DNA of 20,000 bases from an uncultured virus (IMG/VR IMGVR_UViG_3300032820_000005) (IMGVR_UViG_3300032820_000005); one strand, 5' to 3'. Numbered from the stretch's first letter, positions 2,991-17,330 are shown. Notes: a model not told the origin generated them from the sequence alone. Numbers and translations are program-made.

Positions 2991-3020
2991 CTTTTCTTTT
3001 CCCATTTTTGATTATAGTAT

Positions 3021-3724: not shown

Positions 3725-3773
3725 AATTGATCGCTTTTGGACTAAATGTCTTTTCTGAATGATGTACAGAGTA

Positions 3774-3815
3774 ATTATACCATACGGCGCTACCCTTTGT
3801 CAAGGCTATTTTCAC
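3774..3815 (-). promoter_or_regulatory. sigma70-type early promoter, copy 5
   Basis: GTGAAAATAGCC-TTGACA(3798-3803)-18 bp ending TGG-TATAAT(3774-3779). Confidence 0.88.
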
Positions 3816-4068
3816 ATTTCGACCAAATTAATTTGAGATATTGTAAAATAGGAAATGGTCAAGCTGTCAGTGGTTTTTGGTGGGCAGAGAAAAAAGTTGA
3901 CACGGCTCTAATGCTATGTCAACTTCTCGATTTTGGATGTTGGGTATATGTCAAATCCAGTGGTGGCGTGTGTTTGAAGGTGTCAACAAAAGTTTTCCTG
4001 TGTGTTGGGAACATCAAGAGTACTGCCACCAAGACATTCCATCCGATAAAACCACCTAAACAGGTTTT

Positions 4069-4467
4069 TTACGCCTTTTTTAATTTTCCTTCTCTGCTAT
4101 ACACTTTTACACTTTTATCAGGTTTTCTCAAAAATATATCACCAGGCTCCCAATCACAATATTTTGACAGTCCTTCATTTCGTTTGACATTCAACGAAAA
4201 TGCTGTCTGCTTTCCTGTAACCTTAGTATCATTAATTAAAATCCTTTCATCATTGCCTAAATTATACAATATCATATCATACTCTATACCATTCTTGGCT
4301 AATGCTTCTTCTGTAGACTTACCTTCTGAATCATGCCTAGCTGTTGTCAAGATTATCATATCATCATTTTCATAGATATTGTCTAAAAACTTTTTAGCTC
4401 CATCTAATAGTTCATTTGTGTCATGTTTAAATATTGTGCCATCTATGTCTATAAAATAAGTCTTCAT
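4069..4467 (-). CDS. capless HAD-superfamily phosphatase
   Basis: Motif I FIDIDGT, motif II LTTAR, motif IV-like RILIND. Confidence 0.85.
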   Translation of the reverse strand: MKTYFIDIDGTIFKHDTNELLDGAKKFLDNIYENDDMIILTTARHDSEGKSTEEALAKNGIEYDMILYNLGNDERILINDTKVTGKQTAFSLNVKRNEGLSKYCDWEPGDIFLRKPDKSVKVYSREGKLKKA

Positions 4468-4479
4468 ATTTGTATACTA

Positions 4480-4947
4480 TTATGTTCTAGCAATTGCGTC
4501 CTTGCCTGGTAATAAATCTGGAAATGCTTGATTTACTAATCTACTTGTTAATCCCTTATAGGGCAATTTCTTTTTAACTACATTTAGCAGCAATTTTGCT
4601 TCTGTTGGGTGTAATCCTTCTAATAGTTGAATAAATTGATTTTCTGCTTGTACTTGTGTTATGTTCTGTGATTGATTTGTAGGTCGATTATCAAAATTAG
4701 CAAAGCGGCCGATTCTTAGTGCTTCTCTTTCTAATTGTAAATCTGCTAAATCCCAATCTGGCGCGTCGTGTTCCTCATAAGGCGGCGGAGTTGATGGAAT
4801 ATTCCATTGTACCCTTGAATCATATGCTCCCCGCAAAACGGCTTTTAGACCATCGGTTTCATATTGCTGCAAGACTTCTGCTTTTTCTGCTACTTTGGAC
4901 GCTTCTTCTACTTTTGTAAATATTTCGTGTAATGATATATCGCTCAT
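4480..4947 (-). CDS. conserved T4-like phage hypothetical protein (DUF6433-like), usual neighbour of rnh
   Basis: LHEIF..V, W..P...PPY, FIQLLEGLHPTEAKLL...K.KL.YKGLT..LV..AFP pattern. Confidence 0.8.
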   Translation of the reverse strand: MSDISLHEIFTKVEEASKVAEKAEVLQQYETDGLKAVLRGAYDSRVQWNIPSTPPPYEEHDAPDWDLADLQLEREALRIGRFANFDNRPTNQSQNITQVQAENQFIQLLEGLHPTEAKLLLNVVKKKLPYKGLTSRLVNQAFPDLLPGKDAIART

Positions 4948-4995
4948 GTGAATAATTTCTCCTTCTGTGTGTGTCTAACTTTATGTTGACGACAA

Positions 4996-5847
4996 CTAGA
5001 ATTCTCCTAGATGTTCAGTTAGATTTTTCAAATTGAATTTTGTAAAATACTTGATTAGGTATTTTCTTGACTTGTCTAGTTTTTGTATAGATAATTGCTC
5101 TAGGCACTCTTTTTTTAATATAGAGGGCGTTTTCGATAAATCTATTAGCATTTCGTTTCGATGAAATTTCGGTAGTGTCTCATAGTCGCAGAAAATTTCT
5201 GGTTCTAAGTCCAACCACTGCTTGACTTTGCCAGCTGATAATGGCGTTTGTCTGACGCCATTGACAAATGAAGTATCTTCTGATAAAATGTTAGGAATCC
5301 CATCGCCTCGATCACCACGTAAGATTTGCTCTTTTAAAAATTTGACAGGATCGGGTTGTCTAATAAATTCTTTCCGCATGGGATTAAATTGATGCACGTT
5401 GTCAAATTTTTGTAATTGTTGAAAATCCTTGTCACCTGATAAAATCAGATTGTCTAGTTTTTCATCTTTTTCTGCATAGCATATGGTGCCAATTAAATCA
5501 TCGGCTTCTGCTCCTTCTACCTCGATTACTGGATAGGGAAAATATTCATATAGTTCATCCTTGATTTGGTTTAAATTTTGAAATAGTAAATTCCAATCTA
5601 CGTTAGTGCGTTGACGGGTAATTTTACGGTTAGCCTTATAATGCTTGAAATATGACTTTCGCCAATTTTGCCTTGAGTCGCAGCATATCACCAATTCACC
5701 ATATTGCGAATTGAATTTTTGTCTGTGACTACGTAGCGAATTTAGCACCATATGTCGGATTAAGTCTGTTTCGATATCTCGATTTTGGGAAGGTTGAGCC
5801 ATAATGTTAGATATGAACACCTGGCTATAGTCAACTAATATACTCAT
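4996..5847 (-). CDS. rnh: T4-type RNase H (5'-3' exonuclease, FEN family)
   Basis: ILVDYSQ, IRHMVLNSLR, WRKSYFKHYKANRK, EADD, SGDKDFQQL, GDRGDGIPN, C-terminal LKNL.EH..EF. Confidence 0.95.
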   Translation of the reverse strand: MSILVDYSQVFISNIMAQPSQNRDIETDLIRHMVLNSLRSHRQKFNSQYGELVICCDSRQNWRKSYFKHYKANRKITRQRTNVDWNLLFQNLNQIKDELYEYFPYPVIEVEGAEADDLIGTICYAEKDEKLDNLILSGDKDFQQLQKFDNVHQFNPMRKEFIRQPDPVKFLKEQILRGDRGDGIPNILSEDTSFVNGVRQTPLSAGKVKQWLDLEPEIFCDYETLPKFHRNEMLIDLSKTPSILKKECLEQLSIQKLDKSRKYLIKYFTKFNLKNLTEHLGEF

Positions 5848-5851
5848 AATT

Positions 5852-6112
5852 TTATTTTTTAATCAATGGATGCTCTAATCCAATTTCACGATACATCAAT
5901 GCTCTTAGAAAATCCACTAGTGCATTGAAATCTTTAACAAATCCATCACTCTCTATATCGAAATTATTTTCTTTAAGTATAACTAAAGTATGCGTACAAC
6001 ATTCAGCTAAAACCTGCTCGACATATGGTTCTGGCTCATCTGGATATACTAGTGGAATTTCAACTTCCTCATAATTGCAACTTGGATGGATTATAATTTT
6101 ATCATCATCCAT
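5852..6112 (-). CDS. hypothetical protein
   Basis: ORF track 5852..6181; GGAG RBS supports ATG 6112, which removes the overlap with the SET gene. Confidence 0.75.
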   Translation of the reverse strand: MDDDKIIIHPSCNYEEVEIPLVYPDEPEPYVEQVLAECCTHTLVILKENNFDIESDGFVKDFNALVDFLRALMYREIGLEHPLIKK

Positions 6113-6134
6113 ATAATTCTCCATATACAAATAT

Positions 6135-6476
6135 TTATTCCATTTGATATAAGCTATAGCTGCAAGTAATTTCATGGCCACATTTTATATCTTGGATTGT
6201 AAACAATTTCTTTACTATCAAAAAAATTGTAGAAGATTTGACTACTGGTTCTAACTGATAAAGTTCAGTACCTTCAATCAATGTACAATTTGGTTCATCA
6301 CTATGATTGTAAAATCCGCCTAATGGTGTTCTACAATATCCTTGTGGAAATCCAGGCAATTTGACATGGGCAATACCCAAATCACAACCAGAGTATATAT
6401 TAGATGTAGCAAATATACCTAAACCATGTATATCAGATTTTTTAATTGTAAGACAGGGTGGTAATGGTGTATACAT
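6135..6476 (-). CDS. SET-domain protein (putative lysine methyltransferase)
   Basis: SDIHGLGIFA (motif I), RTPLGGFYNHSDEPNC (NHS motif), DIKCGHEITCSY (ELxxxY-like). Confidence 0.9.
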   Translation of the reverse strand: MYTPLPPCLTIKKSDIHGLGIFATSNIYSGCDLGIAHVKLPGFPQGYCRTPLGGFYNHSDEPNCTLIEGTELYQLEPVVKSSTIFLIVKKLFTIQDIKCGHEITCSYSLYQME

Positions 6477-6481
6477 TTTTG

Positions 6482-6679
6482 TCAACGTTGGCCATTTATC
6501 AGATTGTCTACTTTTAAGTTTAAAATTCTGATGGTACGCAGCAATGAAGTAATATTTTCCTTCAATTGTTGATTTTCATTCTTCAGTTGATGGACTTCAC
6601 CTCGCAATGTAGATGATTCTCTCAAATTTGATCTTTTGACCAATCCTAAAATACCCGTATCGGTTCTTCTTTTTAGCAT
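6482..6679 (-). CDS. small coiled-coil hypothetical protein
   Basis: ORF track 6482..6748; GGAG upstream of ATG 6679; heptad pattern LRGEVHQLKNENQQLKENI. Confidence 0.6.
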   Translation of the reverse strand: MLKRRTDTGILGLVKRSNLRESSTLRGEVHQLKNENQQLKENITSLLRTIRILNLKVDNLINGQR

Positions 6680-6684
6680 CTTTT

Positions 6685-6768
6685 TTACGCTCCGCATACA
6701 ACTATACATAATCCCAATATTATAATAAGTCCGATTCCTACTATCCAATAATATCCTTCAGTAACCAT
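6685..6768 (-). CDS. 27 aa single-TM peptide
   Basis: MVTEGYYWIVGIGLIIILGLCIVVCGA*; fills the gap between neighbours, AAGGA upstream. Confidence 0.55.
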   Translation of the reverse strand: MVTEGYYWIVGIGLIIILGLCIVVCGA

Positions 6769-6770
6769 TT

Positions 6771-7118
6771 TTATTTCCTTGCATATAAATCATACTGTTC
6801 TGGCCATCCCGTCTGCATTTTAGCATGTTCTTCTTCTGTGCAACTTCTGTCTAATGGAACATTGCTAGTATCATCTTTATATTCATATCCATTGGCAACC
6901 AAATAAGTTTCTAATTCTTCACCGCTAATATCGGAAAGTATCAGATTGTCATCTAATTGTATACAAGGCTGATTTGTCTGCCCTGTTTTTTCCACCATTT
7001 CATGAAAATTTACAGGATCGTGTATTTGGCGCTCTTCATATTGTATGCCATACTTTGACAGAACTTCTCTTACTCCGCGACTCCAACCACACTGCTTTTT
7101 TAAATATGCTATTGTCAT
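6771..7118 (-). CDS. monothiol glutaredoxin (CGWS active site)
   Basis: AYLKKQCGWSRGVREVL, cis-Pro motif TGQTNQPCI; AAGGAG RBS. Confidence 0.88.
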   Translation of the reverse strand: MTIAYLKKQCGWSRGVREVLSKYGIQYEERQIHDPVNFHEMVEKTGQTNQPCIQLDDNLILSDISGEELETYLVANGYEYKDDTSNVPLDRSCTEEEHAKMQTGWPEQYDLYARK

Positions 7119-7133
7119 TGTTGTTCTCCTTAT

Positions 7134-7352
7134 TTAAAACCCCCTAAAATTCACATCTCTAAATGGAATTATAGTATCTACTGGTTTTGCTGATAATTTC
7201 TTTCTTAATGATTGTATCTCTGAATTCAAAAAATTAATTTTATTTTGGGTATTAGCAACATTTGATAAACGATCATTTTTAATCGTTTCCGCCAGCTTTA
7301 CTACTTCTTCTCTTTTACTAATTAACAATTTTCTAATTTCACCTTTATTCAT
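7134..7352 (-). CDS. small coiled-coil hypothetical protein
   Basis: ORF track 7134..7394; ATG 7352 preceded by GAGGG minimises overlap with nfuA. Confidence 0.65.
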   Translation of the reverse strand: MNKGEIRKLLISKREEVVKLAETIKNDRLSNVANTQNKINFLNSEIQSLRKKLSAKPVDTIIPFRDVNFRGF

Positions 7353-7362
7353 TACAATTCCC

Positions 7363-7953
7363 TCATGTATAGTATGGATTTTCGCCTTCTTCATGTTCTG
7401 TTATATCATCAATTCTTGTTATCTCTGGAAATTCTGCTAATATCTGCTGCTCGACTCCATATTGTAAAGTAGTACCAGATGATGAACAACCTTGACATCC
7501 ACCTTTCATTTCTATATACAGTACACTGGCCTCTACTCTAATCACATCAATTTTCCCGCCATGAGAAGCTATCATAGGATTAATAGTAGAATCTAAATGC
7601 TTAGTAATTCTTTGCTCTATTTCACTGATTTCTGGTACATTAGGATTTGTAATTACAAAACCTTCATTATTCAAATCTGTCTTATAATCAATAGTAGCAC
7701 CATTCACTTTCTCTAAAGAATTTTCATCAATTACCATATCAAATTTTTCTAAATTGAAAAAATTGTCATACCGATGCTCTATTTCATTTTTTCTAATATC
7801 CAACCCCATCTGATAATCAAACTCAGTAGAATTTTGACCCGTTACCTTTAATCTGAATAAGGTATCTTTTGGTATCATGTTTTCAGATTCAATTACACTG
7901 AAAATTTTTGCAATTGCTGTTTCAGTTACTTCTAATTCAATATCTGGTATCAT
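7363..7953 (-). CDS. nfuA: Fe-S biogenesis protein NfuA (degenerate A-type domain + Nfu domain)
   Basis: Cys-less A-type N-domain (..VNGATIDY...GFVITNPN); Nfu domain [10 protein letters not shown]...MKGGCQGC; C-terminal [15 protein letters not shown] overlap with sufB. Confidence 0.93.
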
Positions 7954-9329
7954 CCTACACTACCTTCCATTTGTAGTTGAATTAATTTATTAAGTTCCAT
8001 TGCATATTCCATTGGCAATTCCTTGACCAACGGTTCTATAAAACCATTAACGATCATAGCTGATGCTTCCATTTCTGAAATACCCCTACTCATAAAATAA
8101 AATAATTGTTCTTCACCTATTTTGCTAACAGTAGCTTCATGCTCTATGTTGACTTGATCATTGTCTATCTCTATATACGGATATGTGTCAGATTGTGATT
8201 CTTCGTCTAATATCAATGCATCACATACTACGCTAGATTTTGAATTGTCCGCATTTTCACTAACTTTAACCAATCCGCGATAACTAGTTCTACCACCGCT
8301 TTTGCTAAGAGATTTTGATACAATTTTAGATGTAGTATTTGGTGCATTGTGTACAATTTTGCCACCAGCGTCTTGATGCTGATTTTTGCCAGCAAAGGCT
8401 ATTGACAAAACTTCACCGTGTGCGCCTTCTCCATTTAAATATACACTAGGATATTTCATTGTTACCCTACTACCCAAATTACCATCTACCCATTCCATTA
8501 CTGCACCTTCTTCGGCGATAGCTCTTTTGGTTACAAGATTGTATACATTATTAGACCAATTTTGTATAGTTGAGTATCGTACTCTTGAATCCTTCATGCA
8601 AATAATTTCGACTACTGCACTATGAAGCGACGCAGCTGAATAAGTTGGAGCCGTGCAGCCTTCCACATAATGTACTTGTGAACCTTCGTCGGCTATAATC
8701 AATGTTCTTTCAAATTGCCCCATATTTTCAGTATTGATGCGAAAGTATGCTTGTAACGGATAATCTATTTTAACTCCTGGCGGTACATAGATGAAACTTC
8801 CACCTGACCAAACTGCAGTATTCAATGCTGCAAATTTGTTGTCTAATGGCGGAATAACAGTACCGAAATATTTTTTAAAAATTTCTGGATGTTCCTTGAT
8901 GGCTGATTCTGGATCAGAAAAAATAACGCCCTGCCTGCTCAATTCTTCTTTCATATCATGATAAACAACTTCTGAATCATATTGACCGCCAGCACCAGCT
9001 AAGAATTTCTGTTCTGCTTCTGGAATACCCAACCTATCAAAAGTATTTTTAATGTCATCTGGTACATCATCCCAATCGGTGGCTGATTTTTCAGAGTGCG
9101 ATACATAATACCTTATTTGATCAAAATTCAATTCTGACAAATCTGCACCCCAATCCAAATCATTTTTCTCTAAAAATATTCTATATGAATTTAAGCGATA
9201 ATCCAACATCCATTGCGGCTCATTTTTCAAATCAGATATTTGCTTAATAGTGGCAGATGTTAAACCTTTATCAAATTGAATTTTTGGCTTGACATCATCT
9301 GAAAATCCGTATTTGTAGTTATCTAACAT
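7950..9329 (-). CDS. sufB: Fe-S cluster assembly scaffold SufB
   Basis: [100 protein letters not shown]. Confidence 0.97.
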
Positions 9330-9338
9330 ATTATGGGA

Positions 9339-9364
9339 AATGGGCGCTTATATAAGCGCCCATT
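9339..9364. terminator. perfect 26 bp palindrome between hsp20 and sufB (terminator-like or RNA-processing hairpin)
   Basis: AATGGGCGCTTAT|ATAAGCGCCCATT, extendable via GGAAA/TTTCC; U-tail on the minus strand is short. Confidence 0.65.
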
Positions 9365-9371
9365 ATTTCCT

Positions 9372-9818
9372 TTATCCGTTTAGTATCTCTTTTTTTGTAC
9401 TAATTGGAATTTCTTGCGGTTTCTTAGATTCAGGAATGGCATTTAGTAAATTAATTGTCAACACTCCGTCAGCGAAAATCGCATCTTTGATTTCGATGGT
9501 ATCAGCTAACTTCCACTCAGTTTCAAAAGCGCGTGATGCTATACCCTTGTGTATATATTCACCATCATGTCTATCTTTGCTGCCTTTGACCGTCAGTTTA
9601 CCTATCTCATATAGTACACTGATTTCAGATTCAACAAATCCAGCTAAAGCAATCTCAATGATGATCTGACCGTCATCAGATTTGATTACATTATATGGCG
9701 GATAATTTGGTTTTGAGCCTGGCTTAAAAGTTTCCAATTCTTTGAATAAGCGATTGAAACCTAAGAAAAACGGATCGTATTTTTGATGGATTGATGAATC
9801 CATATTGAAAATTGTCAT
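9372..9818 (-). CDS. hsp20: small heat-shock protein (Hsp20/IbpA family)
   Basis: FFLGFNRLF, NYPPYNVIK, IEIALAGF, YIHKGIASRAF, DGVLTI, IPESKKPQEIPI. Confidence 0.95.
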   Translation of the reverse strand: MTIFNMDSSIHQKYDPFFLGFNRLFKELETFKPGSKPNYPPYNVIKSDDGQIIIEIALAGFVESEISVLYEIGKLTVKGSKDRHDGEYIHKGIASRAFETEWKLADTIEIKDAIFADGVLTINLLNAIPESKKPQEIPISTKKEILNG

Positions 9819-9872
9819 TTTGTTATCTCCTTAAAAAAGCAAGATATTGCGAATGTCTATAATAGACCATTC
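9819..9872 (-). promoter_or_regulatory. ROSE-like RNA thermometer in the hsp20 5' UTR
   Basis: Minus strand: hairpin GAATGGTCTATTATAGACATTC, then ATCTTGCT-TTTTTA-AGGAGAT with UUGCU opposite the AGGAG SD. Confidence 0.65.
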
Positions 9873-9876
9873 TTGT

Positions 9877-10044
9877 TTATATTTTTTTAGACAGTCTAAC
9901 TATTGTACCATCTAATACAGGGGCTGTCATTAACATCAGCCCCACTACTCCGAGTAGAAAAGCAATCATAGGCGAAAGATCACCCATTTCTGTACTACCC
10001 ACTGAACCCCAAACTGTAAAAAACCCTGTAACCAATCTAATCAT
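9877..10044 (-). CDS. small membrane protein (55 aa)
   Basis: MIRLVTGFFTVWGSVGSTEMGDLSPMIAFLLGVVGLMLMTAPVLDGTIVRLSKKI*. Confidence 0.7.
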   Translation of the reverse strand: MIRLVTGFFTVWGSVGSTEMGDLSPMIAFLLGVVGLMLMTAPVLDGTIVRLSKKI

Positions 10045-10047
10045 TAT

Positions 10048-10179
10048 CTAGTCTATCCATTGACCACTTTGTCTAAAGTGGTACAATCTATGTTTAAAAA
10101 TTTCAATCAATAATCCTAAAAGTGTATCCGATTCATACATAGCACCTGTTGTGCCAAGTATTAATCTGTATTTTGTCAT
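10048..10179 (-). CDS. small hypothetical protein (43 aa; alternative start 10194)
   Basis: MTKYRLILGTTGAMYESDTLLGLLIEIFKHRLYHFRQSGQWID*; tightly packed with neighbours. Confidence 0.7.
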   Translation of the reverse strand: MTKYRLILGTTGAMYESDTLLGLLIEIFKHRLYHFRQSGQWID

Positions 10180-10194
10180 TGACCTTTTTTCCAT

Positions 10195-10416
10195 TTATAA
10201 TCCTTCCAAATGACTAATCACTATATCCTGAACATATTTTTTGATTTCATCTTTATCTTCTGTATCAAGAAAATTACTTATCCTTACATGTAAACTCTCT
10301 CCCAAATCAATTTTCCCTTTGCCCTTGTTGTCTATAATTTCCCAAATCAATACAACAAGTGCACTGGCCATCATCATGAAAAGAGAAATTATTACAGCGG
10401 TAAAGAATGCATTCAT
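10195..10416 (-). CDS. N-terminal TM hypothetical protein
   Basis: Hydrophobic N-terminus; ATGA overlap with the upstream gene. Confidence 0.75.
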   Translation of the reverse strand: MNAFFTAVIISLFMMMASALVVLIWEIIDNKGKGKIDLGESLHVRISNFLDTEDKDEIKKYVQDIVISHLEGL

Positions 10417-10604
10417 GCCTCAAGAATATATCCATTTTCCTTATATTCTAATTTCTTGGTATAAAAATCAACACGGGTTTGATAATATTCCACTTTTTCT
10501 TTACCCTTTTCTTTGTCTGGATATATTCCTTGTTCTACTGCTTCTTTGATTCTACGTAAAAATCCACGTGCTAATATCAATTCGTATTTATCACTGTTGA
10601 TCAT
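10413..10604 (-). CDS. hypothetical protein
   Basis: Tight minus-strand packing. Confidence 0.7.
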   Translation of the reverse strand: MINSDKYELILARGFLRRIKEAVEQGIYPDKEKGKEKVEYYQTRVDFYTKKLEYKENGYILEA

Positions 10605-10893
10605 AATGAAATATTTCTTTATTTTTTTCTGCTATTTGCTTAAGATTTTCATCTGTGCTGCTTTCTATCGCACATCCCAAATGCATAGTAGGTGATAGTA
10701 AATAATCATATTCTGTATCCCATGTAGATTTATCACAAACGCTACATACCCATTTACTGCGTATACGCTCTACTCCAATATCTTCTCTAAATTTTCCAAT
10801 TCGCGAATTCAAAATTTTCTCTAATCGTGATCTTTCATTATTTGTCAATTCCCAAAGAAAATCAAGATCTAATTTTATGTCTAAATTGTCCAT
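10591..10893 (-). CDS. hypothetical protein with a possible Zn-binding CxxC...HxxC motif
   Basis: WVCSVCDKST...DYLLSPTMHLGC; AAGGA RBS. Confidence 0.75.
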   Translation of the reverse strand: MDNLDIKLDLDFLWELTNNERSRLEKILNSRIGKFREDIGVERIRSKWVCSVCDKSTWDTEYDYLLSPTMHLGCAIESSTDENLKQIAEKNKEIFHYDQQ

Positions 10894-10899
10894 AGTTCC

Positions 10900-11118
10900 T
10901 TATCCACGTTTTAAGTGTACTAGCCATTTTCCAAATCCCCAAACATCATAGATTATTCGGCTGATAGGTGGTAATTGACTAAATGTAAAATTGTCAGCTG
11001 GAATTCCATATATGGTTTCGATTCGCCAAAGGAGCCAACTCTTTTGGAATCGGCCTTTGGCGAATAAAAACCTACTATACCATAATAGCTCTATGGCTAC
11101 TTTTAAATTTTTAGTCAC
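10900..11118 (-). CDS. hypothetical protein (Trp-rich)
   Basis: GTG start overlapping the upstream stop; packing. Confidence 0.65.
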   Translation of the reverse strand: MTKNLKVAIELLWYSRFLFAKGRFQKSWLLWRIETIYGIPADNFTFSQLPPISRIIYDVWGFGKWLVHLKRG

Positions 11119-11329
11119 GTAACAATGTTCTAACCGTGTCTAGCGCATCCTCTTTATGAGCAATATCGTCAACTAATTTGTAAACCTCTGCTACTAAATC
11201 AATATGTTCACCAATGCCGACTGGATTTTCTAACAGAATATTCAAATTGGCTCTAGCTTTTTTAATTTCTGAATCAATAATTGAATCAGTGGCTTCTAAT
11301 AAATTTCTTCCTAACTCTTTCATACTCAA
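11111..11329 (-). CDS. conserved phage hypothetical protein (xxGIGEH family)
   Basis: KARANLNILLENPVGIGEHIDLVAEV motif, which I recall from marine phages; lies directly behind promoter copy 6. Confidence 0.8.
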   Translation of the reverse strand: MSMKELGRNLLEATDSIIDSEIKKARANLNILLENPVGIGEHIDLVAEVYKLVDDIAHKEDALDTVRTLLRD

Positions 11330-11355
11330 ACTTTCCTATTGTTTAATATACCTAT

Positions 11356-11397
11356 ATTATACCATATCTAGCTAGCCTTTGTCAAGGCTAATTTCAC
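11356..11397 (-). promoter_or_regulatory. sigma70-type early promoter, copy 6
   Basis: GTGAAATTAGCC-TTGACA(11380-11385)-18 bp ending TGG-TATAAT(11356-11361). Confidence 0.9.
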
Positions 11398-11398
11398 C

Positions 11399-11845
11399 TT
11401 AGTCGGTATCTTTCGTATTATTTTTCAACGGCGGGCCATTTTTCCCATTTTTAGCACCATTAGCGCTAATAGTGAAATTTCTAATATCGAAAAAGCTACT
11501 GACTGCACCACCTACTATACCTATTAGCACAAGCAGGATACGTTCAAAAAATGCCATTTCTCTTTCTATTGTGGTTTGATTTGTAAACCATCCAATCATG
11601 ACCAATACACCCATCATCATAACCAAGCCTACAACACCAAAAAATACTGCTCTCAATATTCCATGCTGAGCAGATAACTTCTCGTGCATAGCTAATTGCT
11701 CGGCAGAATCTCGATAATTCTCTTGGGAAACTTTAAGTCTATCTTCGACTTCTACTGTATGAGCGGTCAATTCCTCAATTTCTTTTTTAAGAAGTAAAAT
11801 CAGTTCATGATCAGATTCTATTTCATTGGTTAGATCTTCTGTCAT
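11399..11845 (-). CDS. coiled-coil + 2-TM membrane protein
   Basis: Acidic coiled-coil N-terminus; TM segments AVFFGVVGLVMMMGVLVMIGWF and ILLVLIGIVGGAVSSFF. Confidence 0.8.
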   Translation of the reverse strand: MTEDLTNEIESDHELILLLKKEIEELTAHTVEVEDRLKVSQENYRDSAEQLAMHEKLSAQHGILRAVFFGVVGLVMMMGVLVMIGWFTNQTTIEREMAFFERILLVLIGIVGGAVSSFFDIRNFTISANGAKNGKNGPPLKNNTKDTD

Positions 11846-12387
11846 TCTGTAAAATCACTCACTTTCGGATTATGAATATAATGTTTAGAATCTGGATCTA
11901 ATACATCCTTCCTATTGCAGGATTGACATAATAATCCTCTTACCATTTCTTTACATTTTCCATGCTTTTCTTCATAATCATGATCGTGATCTATAGTGCA
12001 ATATGCATAATCTACCCCTTCAATTAAATTTGAATCATCATAATACTGGGATCTTTCTTCAAAAAAAATAGGATCTACTAATTTTATATTACAATCAGGA
12101 TTGGCACAATGGCCGTTCTGTTTTTCCCACAATTCAATAAAATCAGATTTTGTAAAATTGTAACGATACTTCATCATGGCTATTCGATGTGCATCTGGGT
12201 GTTTGAGACGGTGAAGTTTAGTGCTTTTATTGTTCGATTCACGCCATTTTTCTGGATCTTTCGCACGATGCCTTAAAGCTGCAGCCGCAGCAAATTTTGG
12301 ATCGCGATTTTTTTGATATTCATTTTGCCACTCATTGCGTGCTTCTCTATTTGACCAATCAATAATACTACTACTCATCATCATCAT
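11842..12387 (-). CDS. endonuclease VII-family (His-Me finger) nuclease, putative homing endonuclease
   Basis: YRYNFT..DF..LWEKQNGHCANPDC...IDHDH...VRGLLCQSCN, with a basic helical N-terminus. Confidence 0.88.
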   Translation of the reverse strand: MMMMSSSIIDWSNREARNEWQNEYQKNRDPKFAAAAALRHRAKDPEKWRESNNKSTKLHRLKHPDAHRIAMMKYRYNFTKSDFIELWEKQNGHCANPDCNIKLVDPIFFEERSQYYDDSNLIEGVDYAYCTIDHDHDYEEKHGKCKEMVRGLLCQSCNRKDVLDPDSKHYIHNPKVSDFTE

Positions 12388-12565
12388 CTTTGAACTTCAA
12401 ACTTTTCTTAGAAAAATCACGATGCTTTTTTGGCTTTTTACCTTTGGCCTTTCTATGTGGATCTTTGAATTTCAAAATTTTATCCTTTTTGCGATTTCTC
12501 TGATTGTCATAAAACGTATCTTCAAGATCCTCTATATCCAAGTGATTAAGGTTTAATTTTGCCAT
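12371..12565 (-). CDS. small highly charged hypothetical protein
   Basis: AAGGAG RBS before MAKLNL; acidic/basic/acidic blocks. Confidence 0.7.
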   Translation of the reverse strand: MAKLNLNHLDIEDLEDTFYDNQRNRKKDKILKFKDPHRKAKGKKPKKHRDFSKKSLKFKDDDDE

Positions 12566-12570
12566 ATAGC

Positions 12571-12993
12571 TTACTCCTTTGTATGCCATCTGTTCATTAT
12601 ATTAGAATTATAATATTTTCTTGTACCATCTGAAAATCTTTCATCCAATACATTTTCATTAAATTGATACATTGTTTCTGTGTATCCTAAATCTCGTTTA
12701 TTCAAACAAAATTTTAGAATTTTAAAATCGAACTTGTCCTTGCCTAATTCTTCTATCTCTTGATTCAATTCATTACACGATCCTGTATATGTTTTCCAAT
12801 CTGACTCTTTTTTGACATGCTTTCTATTGACTCTACCTTTGACCTTTCTTCTCTCTGTAAACACCATTTGCTTTTTGCCTATATATGACCTACCTGAATC
12901 CTGGCGAGTTATGCGATAGACAAAACCAAAAAAGGTAGTAGGATCAAAATTTTCACCTAACTGATTTAAATCAGGTTTCCAGTGTCCGTACAT
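12571..12993 (-). CDS. GIY-YIG family nuclease (short T4-like phage type)
   Basis: FFGFVYRIT...GRSYIGKK, KESDWKTYTGS, LGYTE, YYNSNI. Confidence 0.88.
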   Translation of the reverse strand: MYGHWKPDLNQLGENFDPTTFFGFVYRITRQDSGRSYIGKKQMVFTERRKVKGRVNRKHVKKESDWKTYTGSCNELNQEIEELGKDKFDFKILKFCLNKRDLGYTETMYQFNENVLDERFSDGTRKYYNSNIMNRWHTKE

Positions 12994-13378
12994 TTGCGCC
13001 TACAAGAAAACTTGGTTGTTTTTCATCTTTGTCATATGGCCTAGTATTTTCAGCCATAAAAAGTTTATCATCTAAAAATTCTTCAGGCATCATAACTTCA
13101 AAAGTGTAATGTGGTTTGTGAAAAGGTTCATCAGTATTTTCAGCAGTCGGGTGAATTTCGATTTTCCAAGAATTATAAACGTCTTGTTCTATATACTTAA
13201 TTGTTCGCATATAGGTATACCAAGAATTTTTAGAACCGAAATTTGTAGCATTTTTGGTAAGATGTCGATAGCCATACAAAGGATCATAATTATGCGCGAC
13301 GGCCATCAATTCTGTTTTTAATATTGGGTCGTTTCGTTCCCATCTCTGTCTATATTTATACATATCACTATCAAACAT
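12971..13378 (-). CDS. hypothetical protein
   Basis: ORF track 12971..13471; GGAG RBS supports ATG 13378 (MFDSDMY), which avoids overlap with the IscA gene. Confidence 0.7.
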   Translation of the reverse strand: MFDSDMYKYRQRWERNDPILKTELMAVAHNYDPLYGYRHLTKNATNFGSKNSWYTYMRTIKYIEQDVYNSWKIEIHPTAENTDEPFHKPHYTFEVMMPEEFLDDKLFMAENTRPYDKDEKQPSFLVGANVRTLET

Positions 13379-13403
13379 TGTAAAACTCCAAAATGAATGT
13401 TTT

Positions 13404-13730
13404 TTATATACTAAAGCTTTCACCGCATCCACAAGTTGAATTAGCTTTAGGATTACTGACTGAAAAACCATTCCCCATTAAACTATTATCATAGTCAATA
13501 TCAGAGCCAGCTATATACAAAAAAGACCTTTTATCAGTAATGACAGGAAAATCTTCTTTCCAGAAAACTACATCGCTATCATCCCACCAATCAAATGAAA
13601 GATTGTATTGAAATCCAGAACATCCACCACCTTCCACTTTAATTCTCAATCCACAATCTTCTTTTTCTTCACCCAATCCACTTCTCAGTCTAATTGCTGC
13701 AGTGACGGCCTGTTCAGTTATACTTAACAT
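13404..13730 (-). CDS. iscA: A-type Fe-S carrier (IscA/SufA/ErpA, HesB family)
   Basis: LRIKVEGGGCSGFQY, IDY...GF.VSNPKA, TCGCGESF with all three Cys; AAGGAG RBS. Confidence 0.95.
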   Translation of the reverse strand: MLSITEQAVTAAIRLRSGLGEEKEDCGLRIKVEGGGCSGFQYNLSFDWWDDSDVVFWKEDFPVITDKRSFLYIAGSDIDYDNSLMGNGFSVSNPKANSTCGCGESFSI

Positions 13731-13887
13731 TAAAACTCCTTGAGAATGTTATCACTAAATTTATTTTCTTTCTTTTTTGTTTTTACCACAGTCCTTTTCG
13801 GTGATTTACTATTATTCACTTTCTTTTTAGCTTCCTTTTCTTTTGTTTTTTGAGCAGCTATGAAAGAAGCTACTATTCTAGCTATCA

Positions 13888-14676
13888 TTAGTTTTTAATC
13901 CTTTGACGTTTGACTTCCGCCCAACTAGTTACTAATAGATTTTTCAAATCTACTCTTAGCTCATTACCCCAATAATTATATGTGACTTCCCATGGCTTCA
14001 ATCTAGTATTATAAAGCTTAATATCATCTAACCTACCAGCATATCCATCGCTGGCAAATTTTATCAATTGGTTTCTAACTGGAGTTCTAGGTGTATGGAT
14101 AACTCTTACGCATTGCGTGTTTATCCATATTGAAATTCCATTATCCTCCGATCTTAATACCATATGTTGAAAATCAAATGCGCGCACATTACGTATTCGT
14201 ACTTCTCTCTGTCTATATTCCACTAATACAATTCCACGAAATTCATCATCACCATCTTTAAAATAAGTAACTCGTAAATCTCCCCATTCTACTACTATAC
14301 CATCAACTATTTGCCCTTGATCCATTTCAACTTCATCTGGATCTACTGCATGAGTACCTATACCAAACTCAAAATCTAATGTCCAATTTTCAAACTCCTT
14401 ATCAGTATATTTAGCTGGTATCTGAAATAATGTAGTCGTATTCTTATCTCCGTGTAAATGAATTACTCCTGATTCTGGATTCTGAAACGATCTATCAGGT
14501 GGTATCCACCTAATTTTACCTTGTGTAAACGCTTCAGCCCCTAATTTTCTATCAATTCTCCAACTTTCCTTATTCTCAAAATCCCAAAAATATAACAAAT
14601 CTCTACTGACATAACGATCTGCTGAAAAGACAGTAGTCGCAACCAACATCATGACAAAACATAATAGTTTATTCAT
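13888..14676 (-). CDS. secreted LamG/ConA-like jellyroll protein
   Basis: Signal peptide MNKLLCFVMMLVATTVFSA; LLYFWDFE start and YAGRLDDIKLYNTRL end of a LamG-like fold; C-terminal VDLKNLLVTSWAEVK. Confidence 0.8.
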   Translation of the reverse strand: MNKLLCFVMMLVATTVFSADRYVSRDLLYFWDFENKESWRIDRKLGAEAFTQGKIRWIPPDRSFQNPESGVIHLHGDKNTTTLFQIPAKYTDKEFENWTLDFEFGIGTHAVDPDEVEMDQGQIVDGIVVEWGDLRVTYFKDGDDEFRGIVLVEYRQREVRIRNVRAFDFQHMVLRSEDNGISIWINTQCVRVIHTPRTPVRNQLIKFASDGYAGRLDDIKLYNTRLKPWEVTYNYWGNELRVDLKNLLVTSWAEVKRQRIKN

Positions 14677-15025
14677 CTTTTTGTGGATCTTTGGTAGTTT
14701 TAGACCAATAGTTCCTTTTATGCACTGCTATTCCATTATACCTTTTGGGTGTTATATGCTTACGTTGACCACTCTTATTTGGATTATAGGTATTTCTACC
14801 TAGTCCTAATTGTGGGTTGCGATAACGCAGCACATTTTGGTTTTGACGCAAACGATGACGATTTTTCCAATTCCATTCCGCTTGTCTAGCATCTAATTCT
14901 TTTTTAGCTTCTTGCTGTAAGGATTCTTCTACAAGAAATTTTGGTTTTATTGCACAACCTGTAGACATTATTGCTAACCACATAACAATTATCCATACAC
15001 AAAAACCTGTTATATATTTAATCAT
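14669..15025 (-). CDS. predicted lipoprotein, basic
   Basis: Hydrophobic leader ending MSTG-C. Confidence 0.7.
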   Translation of the reverse strand: MIKYITGFCVWIIVMWLAIMSTGCAIKPKFLVEESLQQEAKKELDARQAEWNWKNRHRLRQNQNVLRYRNPQLGLGRNTYNPNKSGQRKHITPKRYNGIAVHKRNYWSKTTKDPQKDE

Positions 15026-15028
15026 TTT

Positions 15029-15223
15029 TCACCACTCTTGCTCTGAAAGTTCCTTTGTTTGTAGTTTAGACGTTTTCTTTATCCATTTCCCATACGAAAT
15101 AACACATATATGCCACCAATCCTTTATGAATTTTTGGTGTATTTTGTGCATATTGATTGGTAGATTTTTCTTTTTTCGTTCATCACAATACCGAAAAATT
15201 TTATCTTCAATATATTCAATCAT
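15029..15223 (-). CDS. hypothetical protein
   Basis: Packing; ATGA overlap with the upstream ORF. Confidence 0.65.
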   Translation of the reverse strand: MIEYIEDKIFRYCDERKKKNLPINMHKIHQKFIKDWWHICVISYGKWIKKTSKLQTKELSEQEW

Positions 15224-15399
15224 TCCATCATACCTTCATAAATTTCTTTTCCAGCTATTTCATATTCATTTTCTACTAATGGACGCACTGTTGAAATTTT
15301 CATAGTTGGATATTGCAATGAAGCACATCCTTGGCATACCAAGAATATAAACCACCACACAAGGCCAAACAAAATCCAAATCAAAATTCTATTTTTCAT
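15220..15399 (-). CDS. predicted small lipoprotein (59 aa)
   Basis: Manual translation MKNRILIWILFGLVWWFIFLVCQG-CASLQYPTMKIS...EGMME*. Confidence 0.65.
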   Translation of the reverse strand: MKNRILIWILFGLVWWFIFLVCQGCASLQYPTMKISTVRPLVENEYEIAGKEIYEGMME

Positions 15400-15646
15400 T
15401 TGCTTCTTTTCTACATTCTAATTCTTTTTTAAGTTCAGCTATTTGTGTCTGTTGTTTAGATATTTTATTCTCTAATTCATATTGTACCTTCTGTCTGTAG
15501 TTCAACTCATCCTCGAAAACAGCTGATTGATCACTGACAAGCTTATCACTCTGATAATCACAACCAACCACATGAAATAATACTGTTGCCAAACCACAGA
15601 CAGCCCAAACTGACGTAGCAATTAATTTAATATACATAACAAACAC
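15389..15646 (-). CDS. predicted lipoprotein with coiled coil
   Basis: Leader ending HVVG-C, then heptad repeats; AGGAG RBS (ATG 15637 is the likely start). Confidence 0.7.
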   Translation of the reverse strand: MFVMYIKLIATSVWAVCGLATVLFHVVGCDYQSDKLVSDQSAVFEDELNYRQKVQYELENKISKQQTQIAELKKELECRKEANEK

Positions 15647-15648
15647 TC

Positions 15649-15744
15649 CTAGCTAGATATACCAACAATAAAAAGGATGAGAAATATAAATGCCCATCCT
15701 ATAACCCAAATACTAACACTATGACCTAATATATTGAATCTCAT
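15649..15744 (-). CDS. 31 aa single-TM peptide
   Basis: MRFNILGHSVSIWVIGWAFIFLILFIVGISS*; TAATG coupling to the upstream gene. Confidence 0.55.
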   Translation of the reverse strand: MRFNILGHSVSIWVIGWAFIFLILFIVGISS

Positions 15745-17330
15745 TATGCCTCAAAAATACTATCTTCAAATTTAGTAAATGACTCAATTGCGGCCGCTAC
15801 TATTTGTTCAGCATTAACAAGTCCAAATATGCCATAAGCGATAGCTAATCCATAAGCAGCTGCTGATCCACCCATTGTAGTTTTTATCATAATATTATAT
15901 GCATTTTTTTGTGTCACTCCCCGCCACATACTGAAAGCTTCTTGAGTTACAATATTAGGTGCATACGGATAGAAAAACGATGTTAATCCCATAGCCCCTA
16001 CTTCTTGATGTAAAAATGGATTTACCAAATCACCCTTTCTAAATGTTGATGGAAAAAGTTGAAATGCTGAATTTTCAGTCCATTCTTTATAAGTAACATA
16101 ATCCAGATAATCACCACTCATATTCCAATAAGGTATTACAACAAGCGAACCAGCCTTTTTCCATCCTTGTATAGCATCTGAATTGTTCAGTTGTGGTACA
16201 TCGACCTCAAATTTATCTACGCCAAGATCCTTTCCTCTTTCAGATGGTAAAACTGCATCATCTACTAAATCCATAACATCAGCCATAGTGTTCTTTTTGA
16301 TAGCAGCAAAATATTCTTTTAGCCTAGTTGTAGTATAGGCATCAACTTCCCAATCATCAACAGGTTCTTCACCATATACTGCGTCTACAGGAATATTATT
16401 TCTATTTCCTATTTCTTCTAATTCTTTTCCTATGTGAGAGTTAGTCGCGCCCATTAATTCAATTGAGAAATCATTCAATAAAATTTCATTCCATGCTCCA
16501 TAGTCCTCGCCTGGATCTGTAAGAATTCCTTTAATAGCGTCATACCCGCCTTTTTTGAGTAGTTTCTCAATTCCATCAAAGTACTGCTTTATTATCCATC
16601 CTTTAGCTTGTTTAGTTATCTTGGTGGGCGCCAGCCAATATCTTTTTCGACCATCTGCGAATATAGATTCTGAATATTTAAGATGTATATCTAAAGGCTT
16701 TGGAATCTTAGCCCAATATTGAGCTAACTTAGTCTGTTTTCCAACTTGAAAATCAAGTGGATTAAATCTTTCTGATCTAAAATCATGGGCATAGGCATAA
16801 GAAAAATTCTGTAGCCATTCATCTTTCTTAAATCTTTTCCAAGCCCTTATTAATATCTCTTTTTTTAATTGATATATATCACCTAACAAATCATTAATTT
16901 TCCCAACATTTCCTTCTGGATCACTGGTATGCTTGGACTGATAACGCAATTTTTCCAAGCTCATCCATTTGCGACCTTGTGTATCCAACTTTGTCCAAAA
17001 ATCGCGAGATGAACTCATTACTGGATAACCATTAATTATTGTCCATACGCCACCTTCTGTAGCTACGCCACCTTCGATCAAAGAACTCAACATATCGCCT
17101 GGATCTGTCATAGCAGATATTTGTCGAGCAGAATTTTGTATTTTAATAAGTGTATCTACATTATCTAAAGATGTGATATGTACAGCATAAAGGGGCAACT
17201 TTACTATCCCCTCAATACGCTGAATCATTTTTTTACTCAAAGGAACATGTGGATATAAATGAAAAGCATAATCTTCTGTTTTTTCTGTCGCTTCTAATAA
17301 AAGAGGTTGGAAATTTTTATAAGTTTTCAT
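15744..17330 (-). CDS. large hypothetical protein, putative head-packaged (internal virion) protein
   Basis: 528 aa ORF; N-terminus MKTYKNFQPLLLEA resembles the T4 capsid-targeting sequence; late promoter upstream. Confidence 0.7.
   Translation of the reverse strand: MKTYKNFQPLLLEATEKTEDYAFHLYPHVPLSKKMIQRIEGIVKLPLYAVHITSLDNVDTLIKIQNSARQISAMTDPGDMLSSLIEGGVATEGGVWTIINGYPVMSSSRDFWTKLDTQGRKWMSLEKLRYQSKHTSDPEGNVGKINDLLGDIYQLKKEILIRAWKRFKKDEWLQNFSYAYAHDFRSERFNPLDFQVGKQTKLAQYWAKIPKPLDIHLKYSESIFADGRKRYWLAPTKITKQAKGWIIKQYFDGIEKLLKKGGYDAIKGILTDPGEDYGAWNEILLNDFSIELMGATNSHIGKELEEIGNRNNIPVDAVYGEEPVDDWEVDAYTTTRLKEYFAAIKKNTMADVMDLVDDAVLPSERGKDLGVDKFEVDVPQLNNSDAIQGWKKAGSLVVIPYWNMSGDYLDYVTYKEWTENSAFQLFPSTFRKGDLVNPFLHQEVGAMGLTSFFYPYAPNIVTQEAFSMWRGVTQKNAYNIMIKTTMGGSAAAYGLAIAYGIFGLVNAEQIVAAAIESFTKFEDSIFEA

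Follow-up and report, generated by a model that had tools for sequence, protein, structure and literature searches.

A phage-borne SufB scaffold gene with iron-sulfur carrier genes: a candidate auxiliary Fe-S cluster biogenesis module in an uncultured marine, probably T4-like phage

The DNA analysed here is a 20,000-nt stretch (the window) of an uncultured virus (IMGVR_UViG_3300032820_000005), which carries four genes related to iron-sulfur (Fe-S) cluster assembly: sufB, an nfuA-type gene, a glutaredoxin-like (Grx-like) gene and an A-type carrier gene. All four are on the minus strand, and the ORF list placed them at the positions given by the first-pass annotation (Table 1). The ATG of nfuA overlaps the stop codon of sufB (ggATGAtacc), which confirms the claimed coupling of a full-length sufB to nfuA. 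The grx-like gene with its CGWS motif was recovered two genes downstream of this pair, separated from nfuA by one ORF of coiled-coil appearance that matched no family above cut-off in profile searches. The A-type carrier gene, described as intact and about 4 kb upstream, was located 4.07 kb upstream of the sufB start with its three cysteines.

Table 1. Coordinates of the features at the locus, counted from the first nucleotide of the window.
Feature	Position	Strand	Evidence
Grx-like protein, 115 aa	6771..7118	-	PF00462 33.6 bits (gathering cut-off 22.9); CGWS at residues 10-13
86-aa ORF, coiled-coil look	7134..7394	-	between nfuA and grx-like gene
nfuA-type carrier, 196 aa	7363..7953	-	PF01521 + PF01106
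sufB, Fe-S cluster scaffold, 459 aa	7950..9329	-	TIGR01980 716.3 bits (equivalog cut-off 346.4)
Perfect 26-nt palindrome, 11-bp stem, 6 G-C pairs	9339..9364		hsp20 stop to sufB start
Hsp20/IbpA-like small heat-shock gene	9372..9818	-	PF00011 51.7 bits; phrog_432 129 bits
Sigma-70-type promoter, TTGACA-N18-TATAAT + TG extension	11356..11385	-	consensus score 12/12
A-type Fe-S carrier (IscA/ErpA/SufA family), 108 aa	13404..13730	-	TIGR00049 100.2 bits (cut-off 58.8)

The neighbouring genes, as identified by profile searches of the window, are phage genes, including a 5'-3' exonuclease/T4 RNase H-like gene, a SegE-type GIY-YIG gene, an endonuclease VII-like gene, a CobS/CobT-like gene, hsp20 and a class II ribonucleotide reductase (RNR). 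The GC3 of the four Fe-S genes is 0.20-0.27, vs 0.245 ± 0.042 (mean) for the other 21 ORFs in the window and 0.45-0.59 for cellular sufB genes. Logan contigs from other runs cover positions 5396-8480 (X2) and 4238-7853 (X12), each with 0 differences, and positions 9294-11367 (X9), and both SufB junctions are bridged by such contigs. The sequence TTGACA-N16-18-TANNAT occurs seven times in the window against 0.47 expected matches, and six of the seven are on the gene strand. The promoter in Table 1 lies closer upstream of the hsp20-sufB-nfuA-grx gene string than any other consensus promoter and probably drives the Fe-S genes.

In addition to passing the TIGR01980 equivalog cut-off, SufB matches Pfam SUFBD_core (298.6 bits) and aligns from residue 4 to residue 459 with E. 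coli SufB (5awf_A) end to end. It is of the Gram-positive/SufU type and does not have the CxxCxxxC insert of the E. coli protein. In the portions of PMC6006206 used here, the sulfur acceptor Cys254, the tunnel residues and the cluster site Cys405/Glu432/His433/Glu434 are described for E. coli SufB, and the 16 residues called critical or tunnel-lining there were mapped onto the phage protein. All 16 are present (R197, N199, E207, E223, C225, H236, T254, Q256, W258, K268, T290, K292, C369, E396, H397, and E398), and they are retained in 119-120 of 120 clade members. At positions at least 90% conserved among 47 cellular SufBs, only five clade-specific changes were found, all of them conservative. 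The clade comprises more than 100 sequence variants from marine metagenomes, and the identical SufB protein is recorded on 13 contigs, the longest of 74 kb. Comparison with L124/L125 gave a pN of 0.087 and a pS of 0.69-0.74, the latter saturated, and a dN/dS of about 0.05. Judged by these sequence comparisons, sufB is under strong purifying selection and the phage SufB appears functionally intact.

The NfuA-type protein has the expected architecture, a cysteine-free A-type-carrier domain followed by a CxxC Nfu domain. Its degenerate N-terminal domain (PF01521, residues 6-106) contains no Cys, its Nfu domain (PF01106, residues 116-181) contains C153-Q-G-C156, and the GGCQGC motif is invariant in alignment A2, accompanied by a GENPYY tail. 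It does not reach the NfuA equivalog TIGR03341 (110.2 bits vs a cut-off of 269.35), and its nearest named relative is poribacterial. The A-type carrier has all three ligand cysteines (Cys37, and Cys100 and Cys102 in C-G-C at 100-102) but is below the ErpA equivalog cut-off (97.2 vs 117 bits). Copies 54-70% identical to it adjoin NfuA or Grx genes in G002, G003, G005, G010, and L124.

The Grx-like protein had been annotated as a monothiol glutaredoxin, and its assignment to the CGFS type was not upheld. The class II monothiol family (Grx4/GrxD) was rejected, as the motif is CGWS and the phage protein gave no match to TIGR00365 at E<=0.01; cellular relatives scored 20.1 and 16.7 bits on this model against a cut-off of 117.1. 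The predicted structure has the Grx fold (pLDDT 79.6) and resembles Grx3, NrdH, and GST N-terminal domains with TM scores of 0.5-0.55. Three cysteines are invariant in alignment A1: C10 in CGWS, C52 following the cis-Pro position (QPC), and C93 within the C-terminal tail. Homologs come after sufD in L127 and in Poribacteria loci, and the family occurs in 97 of the 101 genomes from the poribacterial phylum but in 0 of 101 from Planctomycetota. By its sequence relationships, the Grx-like protein belongs to an unmodelled, suf-operon-linked family with three invariant cysteines.

The origin of two of the genes is indicated by trees and synteny. In the SufB tree, the 17 phage/metagenome rows group as a single clade (SH-aLRT 100) whose sister is L127 (93), with Poribacteria branching next (97), and in the Grx tree the 19 phage rows form one clade (97) that adjoins Poribacteria rows. 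The Poribacteria operon has the order sufC-sufB-sufD-grx-like...sufS-sufU, and the phage SufB is 70-78% identical to the nearest cellular SufBs. The trees and gene order show that a phage lineage captured sufB, along with the grx-like gene near it, a single time and long ago from a suf operon of the Poribacteria type. Exactly these two genes were retained from the donor operon and now have phage-like base composition, and in the phage lineage they are joined by two carriers, one A-type and one NfuA-type.

The occurrence in nearly all poribacterial genomes, the placement between sufD and sufS, and the co-retention with SufB in an abundant lineage of planktonic phages raise the tentative possibility that the Grx-like protein is an undescribed dedicated SUF component pairing with SufB, although we regard this as rather doubtful. 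If it were so, the protein could fill the place of a missing thiol/electron donor in resolving the SufB persulfide or, alternatively, be the first exit carrier for the SufB cluster. The three poribacterial-type genes would then point to Poribacteria-related bacteria as hosts of these phages, now or in the past.

As first read, the four genes are carried by the phage, are intact and make up a real module. In relatives, the carrier genes lie directly side by side, and SufB adjoins either NfuA or the Grx-like and A-type-carrier genes. The Grx-like, A-type carrier, and NfuA genes are contiguous in G005 and G010, NfuA adjoins the A-type carrier in G002 and G003, and the order SufB-ferredoxin-Grx-A-type carrier is found in L124 and L125, which are taken to be phage only by the grouping of their SufB, Grx, and A-type-carrier genes with the phage clade and whose small ORFs matched nothing among the sequences compared. 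For 13 SufB clusters, the longest contig has the same length as that of an NfuA cluster (8 cases) or of a Grx cluster (5 cases), from which we infer that SufB is on the same contig as NfuA or Grx in these clusters. No SufB/D core was detected in 12 related IMG/VR records (fragments, 2-73% complete), one of which, G001, is the same phage cut just before the module. The first-pass annotation had read the locus as a scaffold plus three candidate carrier types; because the carrier trio occurs in related fragments without SufB, SufB is better described as an add-on in a sub-lineage than as the hub, with the Grx-like protein, A-type carrier, and NfuA as the cassette. Evidently the carriers can also function with no phage SufB close by. 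As to the phage itself, the window contains T4-type genes of the accessory kind only; the T4 core genes are known from the relative G010 (portal, major head, sheath, tube, gp43-type polymerase, gp41, UvsX, UvsY, and gp55), which has 13 genes in common with the window and keeps the order of several of them. The carrier trio is also present in G005, a phage of the DnaE/HK97 type and not T4-like.

No sufC, sufD, sufS, sufU, or sufE was found in 33 kb of this phage, that is, the 20-kb window and a further 12.9 kb leftward from G001, which agrees with and extends the absence of sufC/D/S noted earlier for the window; SufB thus has no SufC, SufD, or SufS beside it within the DNA read. All suf operons known at the time of the review encode SufC with SufB, and the known complexes are SufB2C2 and SufBC2D, according to the cited portions of PMC6006206. 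From the absence of these genes in the 33 kb, the phage SufB probably depends on a compatible host SufC and SufS.

Taken together, and with a probability of roughly 0.6, the locus is proposed to work as an auxiliary module for Fe-S cluster biogenesis in an uncultured marine, probably T4-like phage. Host RNA polymerase would read the genes early from sigma-70-type promoters. The phage SufB, which has unchanged sulfur-entry, tunnel, and cluster-ligand residues and a conserved C-terminal SufC-binding domain, would dock on the host SufC ATPase, either with host SufD (SufBC2D) or as SufB2C2. As the first-pass annotation suggested, it may join host SufCD and may act under iron or oxidative stress. 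Persulfide sulfur would be supplied by host SufS with SufU or SufE, clusters would go on to the phage A-type carrier and NfuA, and the three-cysteine Grx-like protein might either shuttle clusters or serve as a thiol/electron donor. In this way, host Fe-S enzymes, and phage ones where encoded, could stay loaded during infection. Candidate clients flank the SufB gene of L124, as described next.

The idea that the module mainly serves phage Fe-S proteins rather than host metabolism (ferredoxin, NuoB-like and PFOR-like proteins, and radical SAM or Cas4-type nucleases encoded in other parts of the genome) is compatible with the main explanation, if on the unlikely side. The SufB gene of L124 is flanked by a NuoB-family gene (TIGR01957, 230 vs a cut-off of 142.7 bits), a PFOR/PorB-like C-terminus, and an FdxA-type ferredoxin gene, G005 encodes a PD-(D/E)XK nuclease, and T4-like marine genomes have been described in which an A-type carrier is accompanied by as many as 12 radical SAM genes (PMC5332604). 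Against this, the 33 kb of the window phage revealed no recognisable gene for an Fe-S client; the RNR of this phage is of the B12 class II type and its thymidylate synthase is ThyX.

A distinctly less probable reading is that a SufB2 homodimer sits on host SufC as a minimal scaffold, as SufB2C2 without SufD, the Grx-like protein replacing persulfide reduction or cluster release, in which case only SufC and a sulfur source would be needed from the host. In vitro the SufB2C2 complex can form and bind clusters, and organisms with sufBC only have it as their active form (PMC6006206); the retention of precisely sufB and the grx-like gene from the donor operon fits such a unit; in relatives, however, the Grx-like gene is beside the A-type carrier and NfuA genes in fragments without SufB, and the carriers are therefore indicated as its partners. 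Very improbable is a decoy role, in which phage SufB would tie up host SufC/SufS and so halt or divert the Fe-S synthesis of the host: a scaffold subunit without its own ATPase could titrate host partners, but a decoy needs binding surfaces only, whereas the sulfur-entry, tunnel, and ligand residues are kept almost throughout the clade, the gene is under strong purifying selection, and it travels with three cluster carriers. Joining of a bacterial SufB segment to phage DNA by the assembler, or host contamination, which the first-pass annotation had named as a refuting case, can be practically dismissed at the level of contigs, because GC3 fits the neighbours and other-run contigs bridge both SufB junctions, the SET-Grx adjacency is seen again in G002, and a clade SufB (P0063, 461 aa) used as query reached at most 73% identity across 185,579 species-representative genomes, even though the independent record G001 stops at window position 6476, which is 295 bp short of the Grx-like gene, and most "phage" SufB records in public phage collections are host flanks.

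Compared with known systems, the phage SufB is full-length like that of SufBC2D (E. coli 5awf; SufU-type operons of Firmicutes and Poribacteria) and has the same mapped residues; unlike in SUF operons, its gene has nfuA, rather than another suf gene, as its coupling partner within the 33 kb read. The phage supplies what would be one subunit of a multi-subunit host machine, much as cyanophages carry psbA for one subunit of a host complex. Marine viral genomes, partly T4-like, encode A-type carriers, IscU, Grx, PaaD/DUF59, and radical SAM proteins, and the viral A-type carriers and glutaredoxins were proposed to act for Fe-S proteins of both host and virus (Nishimura et al., 2017, PMC5332604). 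The present phage resembles these viruses in its A-type carrier and glutaredoxin-type genes; it differs in that its scaffold is SufB, not IscU, and its Grx belongs to the suf-operon-linked three-cysteine family. The proviso that the gene set might already be described holds for the carrier genes and the Fe-S assembly idea; SufB and the Nfu domain are not mentioned in the excerpted text and supplements of that paper. Group C amoC-phages, which are large, carry sufB as a host-like gene, near-identical to that of the present freshwater nitrifier host and recently captured (bioRxiv 10.64898/2026.06.18.733297), unlike the gene described here, which was captured long ago and is now found, along with carrier genes, across a large marine clade. 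E. coli GrxD, NfuA, and ErpA cooperate downstream of Suf under stress (PMC11327457, in the section cited), and the phage cassette has one each of these carrier kinds, although its Grx-like protein is not Grx4/GrxD and its NfuA and A-type carrier are below the NfuA/ErpA equivalog cut-offs. Phage Fe-S carrier genes are already known, and a phage-borne SufB with carriers extends this kind of helper gene.

Strong purifying selection on SufB in more than 100 variants suggests that scaffold supply may limit phage production. In the iron-poor ocean, Fe-S clusters limit respiration, central metabolism, and many DNA/RNA enzymes. The phage SufB also offers a natural test of which SUF subunits organisms can exchange, and the small Grx-like protein linked to sufB in Poribacteria and phages may be an unrecognised SUF accessory. 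Three of the four genes have poribacterial affinities, a kind of hint at its hosts that is seldom available for an uncultured phage lineage.

Two further features precede sufB. The hsp20 gene is directly upstream, and the link is positional only, because in G010 hsp20 lies between regA and the DNA polymerase gene. The palindrome between them stops 9 nt short of the sufB ATG, has no clear T-run on the gene strand, and may serve as an attenuator, an RNA stabiliser, or a processing site.

The reading of four window genes as a real phage module for iron-sulfur (Fe-S) cluster assembly is well supported. The genes for SufB, an NfuA-type protein, an A-type carrier and a glutaredoxin (Grx)-like protein are intact, under selection, phage-borne and linked across related phages, and their origin can be traced. 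The first-pass annotation had described a SufB gene, an ATGA-coupled nfuA, a CGWS gene and an intact A-type carrier gene, and these observations were right in every particular. According to the ORF list, all window genes lie on the minus strand. The NfuA-type protein is composed of an A-type-carrier-like N-domain without cysteine and an Nfu domain with C153-x-x-C156; a single 86-aa ORF separates its gene from the Grx-like gene. The phage neighbours encode a T4 RNase H-like exonuclease, a SegE-type GIY-YIG protein, an endonuclease VII-like protein, CobS, a CobT-like protein, Hsp20 and a class II RNR, and a tRNA scan of the window found none. The second gene downstream of the Grx-like gene, after an 88-aa ORF (6482-6748), codes for a SET-domain protein (6135-6485); in the related IMG/VR record G002 the SET and Grx-like genes (65% and 81% identity) are also ~400 bp apart.

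Positions of the Fe-S genes and the nearest upstream promoter in the window
Feature	Position	Strand	Description
SufB	7950-9329	minus	459 aa; Pfam SUFBD_core 298.6 bits; NCBIfam TIGR01980 716.3 bits (cut-off 346.4)
NfuA-type gene	7363-7953	minus	196 aa; start overlaps SufB stop as ATGA
Grx-like gene	6771-7118	minus	115 aa, glutaredoxin fold; CGWS = residues 10-13
A-type carrier	13404-13730	minus	TIGR00049 100.2 bits (cut-off 58.8); 3/3 cysteines present
Promoter	11356-11385	minus	nearest upstream of the hsp20-sufB-nfuA-grx string

That the contig might be a host-phage chimera had been raised against such a module, and this explanation fails on base composition, on contigs from other sequencing runs and on gene order in a relative. 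The GC3 of the four Fe-S genes (0.20-0.27) is phage-like, the other 21 window ORFs having a mean of 0.245 +/- 0.042, and the nearest cellular sufB genes have values of 0.45-0.59. An IMG/VR record of the same phage, G001, shares 99.94% identity with window 1-6476 and extends 12.9 kb further left, where CobT-like, DNA ligase, ThyX and GH108 genes were detected and no suf gene was found. It ends 295 bp short of the Grx-like gene, which is why it contains no SufB. The junction left open in this way is bridged by Logan contigs from other runs, X2 (5396-8480) and X12 (4238-7853), each with 0 differences, and X9 spans 9294-11367, from the SufB start across hsp20; the window itself may derive from some of the runs behind these contigs. 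The SET-Grx adjacency was found again in G002, and the identical SufB protein is recorded on 13 contigs, the longest of 74 kb. Contigs in runs X2 and X12 also fuse 16428 directly to 12785 with ~21 other letters between, so that window 12786-16427 is missing, and in X12 contigs 13189 is joined to 16261; co-occurring relatives therefore lack the A-type-carrier segment at this place. The record G010 agrees with this, its SegE homologue following closely after the w15744 homologue.

No match to the window was found by megablast among 50,697 phage records, and the nearest isolates, Methylophilales phage Melnitz and cyanomyophages, are 46-55% identical (RNase H, CobS). The phage is called T4-like because of its synteny with G010, a 67-kb IMG/VR record which has 13 window genes in common, several of them in the same order. 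This record contains the T4 core set, with terminase, sheath, tube, portal, prohead protease, major head, UvsY, a gp55-type sigma factor, clamp, clamp loader, RegA, a gp43-type polymerase, UvsX, gp41 and gp61. The same carrier genes are present in G005 (105 kb, estimated 73% complete), yet this is another phage type: its polymerase is DnaE, its capsid is HK97-type and its portal belongs to a different family. Further genes of G005 code for a flagellin (Flagellin_N and Flagellin_C) and a protein with a FlgM anti-sigma-28 domain (L226-L231).

In the SufB search 8000 candidates were scored, and the best 120 clusters, almost all from ENA metagenomes, were all 85-100% identical and fell into two forms of 459 and 461 aa on contigs of up to 148 kb, those of ~148 kb carrying the 461-aa form. 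About 75 clusters (51-99% identity) were obtained for NfuA and 110 for the Grx-like protein, whose nearest ESM-Atlas clusters carry a viral label. The three carrier genes (Grx-like, A-type carrier and NfuA) stand side by side in G005 (65127-66614) and G010 (32518-33831), and NfuA adjoins the A-type carrier in G002 and in another related record, G003. A SufB/D core was found in none of the 12 IMG/VR records with NfuA or Grx relatives, all of which are fragments and one of which is G001. Based on these contiguous carriers and the records without the core, the conserved unit is a cassette of the three carriers, passed between phage types, and SufB is an addition in one sub-lineage. NfuA as a single query gave no match in IMG/VR, its alignment as query gave 11 loci, and SufC from the metagenome locus L127 gave no relative there. 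The longest contig is equal in size for eight SufB clusters and an NfuA cluster, and for five SufB clusters and a Grx cluster, and SufB was thus indirectly taken to share contigs with NfuA or Grx. Two loci with a SufB relative at 85%, L124 and L125, have the order SufB-ferredoxin-Grx-A-type carrier. Upstream of SufB, L124 carries a NuoB-family gene (TIGR01957, 230 bits) and a PFOR/PorB-like C-terminus, and its ferredoxin is of the FdxA type (L124 1-1489, 3486-3749). When its small ORFs, ferredoxin, PFOR piece and NuoB were compared with all collected loci, NuoB alone was matched; five Planctomycetaceae loci (L016, L024, L051, L059 and L060) have NuoB-like genes (53% identical) at 1-4 kb upstream of sufB.

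The cellular origin was traced with the 461-aa form as query in one genome each of 185,579 species. Among the best 80 of 587 confirmed relatives (600 pattern matches), identity to this form was at most 73%, with Poribacteria ranked first, followed by Planctomycetaceae, Limnocylindria and Bacillota. A quick maximum-likelihood tree with 65 rows placed the 17 phage or metagenome SufBs in one clade (SH-aLRT 100, stem length 0.35), sister to L127 (93) and then to Poribacteria (97). The SufB of L127 is 80-83% identical to poribacterial SufBs, and its locus has the order moaA, sufC, sufB, sufD, grx-like, sufS; a poribacterial locus (L006) has the same order, ending in sufS-sufU. A Grx-like gene was present in 11 of 12 poribacterial-type genome loci, the twelfth being cut short, and in 0 of the 68 other genome loci. 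Its profile matched 97/101 sampled poribacterial-phylum genomes versus 0/101 Planctomycetota, and in the Grx-like tree the 19 phage rows formed one clade (97) beside poribacterial rows. For NfuA, the first named cellular relative was poribacterial (43%), and full-length profile matches were detected in two Poribacteria genomes (253-260 bits). Judged from these trees and gene orders, the simplest reading would be a single old capture of sufB and grx-like out of a Poribacteria-type suf operon, after which the genes fully took on the base composition of the phage. A DNA search of the window against five poribacterial-phylum genomes found no spacer-like and no prophage match; what matched was confined to sufB, at a nucleotide identity of 68-72%, and part of grx, so that the search gives no host link.

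SufB matches in other phage records were read differently. Among 23 isolated-phage records with SufB, those at 60-68% (Staphylococcus, Listeria, Enterococcus) were attributed to the host, since their SufB matches sit at the ends of records or on short contigs without annotation. The SufB of Microcystis phage MaAM05 (43%; L214, MW495066.1 261819-273876) was read as bacterial DNA and not as a phage Fe-S module; the end of this record contains panB, panC and a complete sufB-sufC-sufD-sufS-iscU block. IMG/VR SufB scans gave 4 and 39 loci, all at 60-67% and mostly at contig ends, which were read as provirus edges, and no other window gene was found in the first four. Host sufB (63-67%) begins or ends many phage or provirus records of Staphylococcus, Listeria, Enterococcus and Bacillus type, which suggests that a prophage insertion site next to sufB is common in Bacillota.

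Phage SufB aligns to E. coli SufB (5awf_A) over residues 4 to 459, and only the CxxCxxxC insert, which is dispensable, is missing. In the review PMC6006206, Cys254, Cys405, Arg226, Asn228, Gln285, Trp287, Lys303 and Glu434 are given as critical, Glu432 and His433 as possible ligands, and Glu236, Glu252, His265, Thr283, Thr326 and Lys328 as tunnel residues of the E. coli protein. All 16 mapped residues are found in the window SufB and are kept in 119-120 of 120 clade members. The phage clade carries only five fixed differences, each of them conservative, at the positions that are at least 90% conserved across 47 cellular SufBs. Comparison with L124/L125 gave a pN of 0.087 and a saturated pS of 0.69-0.74, hence a dN/dS of ~0.05. 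Nothing points to a new function or to a mere binding decoy.

The Grx-like protein is not a CGFS protein: its motif is CGWS and the Grx4-family model gave no match at E<=0.01; the best family model, YruB, reached 30 bits versus 88.6 required. Three cysteines are invariant in 17 members: C10 (CGWS), C52 (right after the cis-proline position) and C93 (C-terminal tail). In the predicted structure (pLDDT 79.6), a plain Grx fold leads into a tail that is poorly defined; the model resembles Grx3, NrdH and GST N-domains. A cluster can be ligated when glycine follows the first cysteine, as in poplar GrxC1 (CGYC), and by this analogy the protein may well work like a cluster-carrying Grx. It could equally be a thiol or electron donor to a SufB-bound persulfide. 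A predicted complex with SufB scored 0.00 against a mark of 0.32 and has no weight either way.

Phage SufB would dock on host SufC, either with host SufD or as SufB2C2; SufBC2D and SufB2C2 are both known complexes (PMC6006206). Sulfur would be supplied by host SufS with SufU or SufE, and the clusters would pass to the phage carriers, which may deliver them to host enzymes and, in relatives, to clients encoded by the phage (ferredoxin, NuoB, PFOR-like).

The principle of phage Fe-S assembly genes is already published, and the window module is a variant of it. In the available text of Nishimura et al. (2017; PMC5332604), A-type carrier, IscU, Grx, DUF59 and radical SAM genes are reported from marine, partly T4-like genomes and the same general role is proposed; the gene list there is without SufB or an Nfu domain, unlike the window phage, which has both. 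'Fe-S biosyn' genes are marked on T4-type dsrC and soxYZ contigs in the accessible part of Roux et al. (2016, bioRxiv 053090), and sufE and nifU were reported from OMZ and Cariaco viromes. Phage SufB was found discussed only in an amoC-phage preprint (bioRxiv 10.64898/2026.06.18.733297), available as an excerpt; a literature search on NfuA gave no relevant report, and the pelagimyophage paper contains no Fe-S term. What is new is a scaffold gene within a large marine phage lineage, the single poribacterial-type origin of the gene set, and a suf-linked, unmodelled three-cysteine Grx-like family.

Six sigma-70-type promoters, TTGACA-N18-TGGTATAAT, were found on the gene strand (0.47 matches expected on both strands), and no convincing terminator was found after the one nearest the hsp20-sufB-nfuA-grx string; this pattern would fit early transcription by host RNA polymerase. 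The T4 late-promoter motif TATAAATA has 3 matches in the window versus 3.4 expected, and thus gives no signal. The gap from the hsp20 stop to the sufB start contains a perfect 26-nt palindrome without a T-run (9339-9364), and the sufB ATG is not preceded by a visible Shine-Dalgarno sequence. Among the sequencing runs with matching contigs, none was listed as RNA; a run presumed to be RNA contains a 362-nt contig over hsp20 (9565-9911), which is not usable as expression evidence, and no contig on the Fe-S genes. No tandem repeats were found in 2000-4000. Between very small ORFs at 2402-3190, a ~98-nt repeat occurs four times, its copies having 63-72% identity to the reference copy; the same repeats are present in G001 too. 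Every copy includes an early promoter of consensus type on the gene strand (TTGACATTAGCCCCCAAAAAATGGTATAAT and variants), and the arrangement resembles the repeat cassettes with promoters that occur in T4-type hyperplastic regions.
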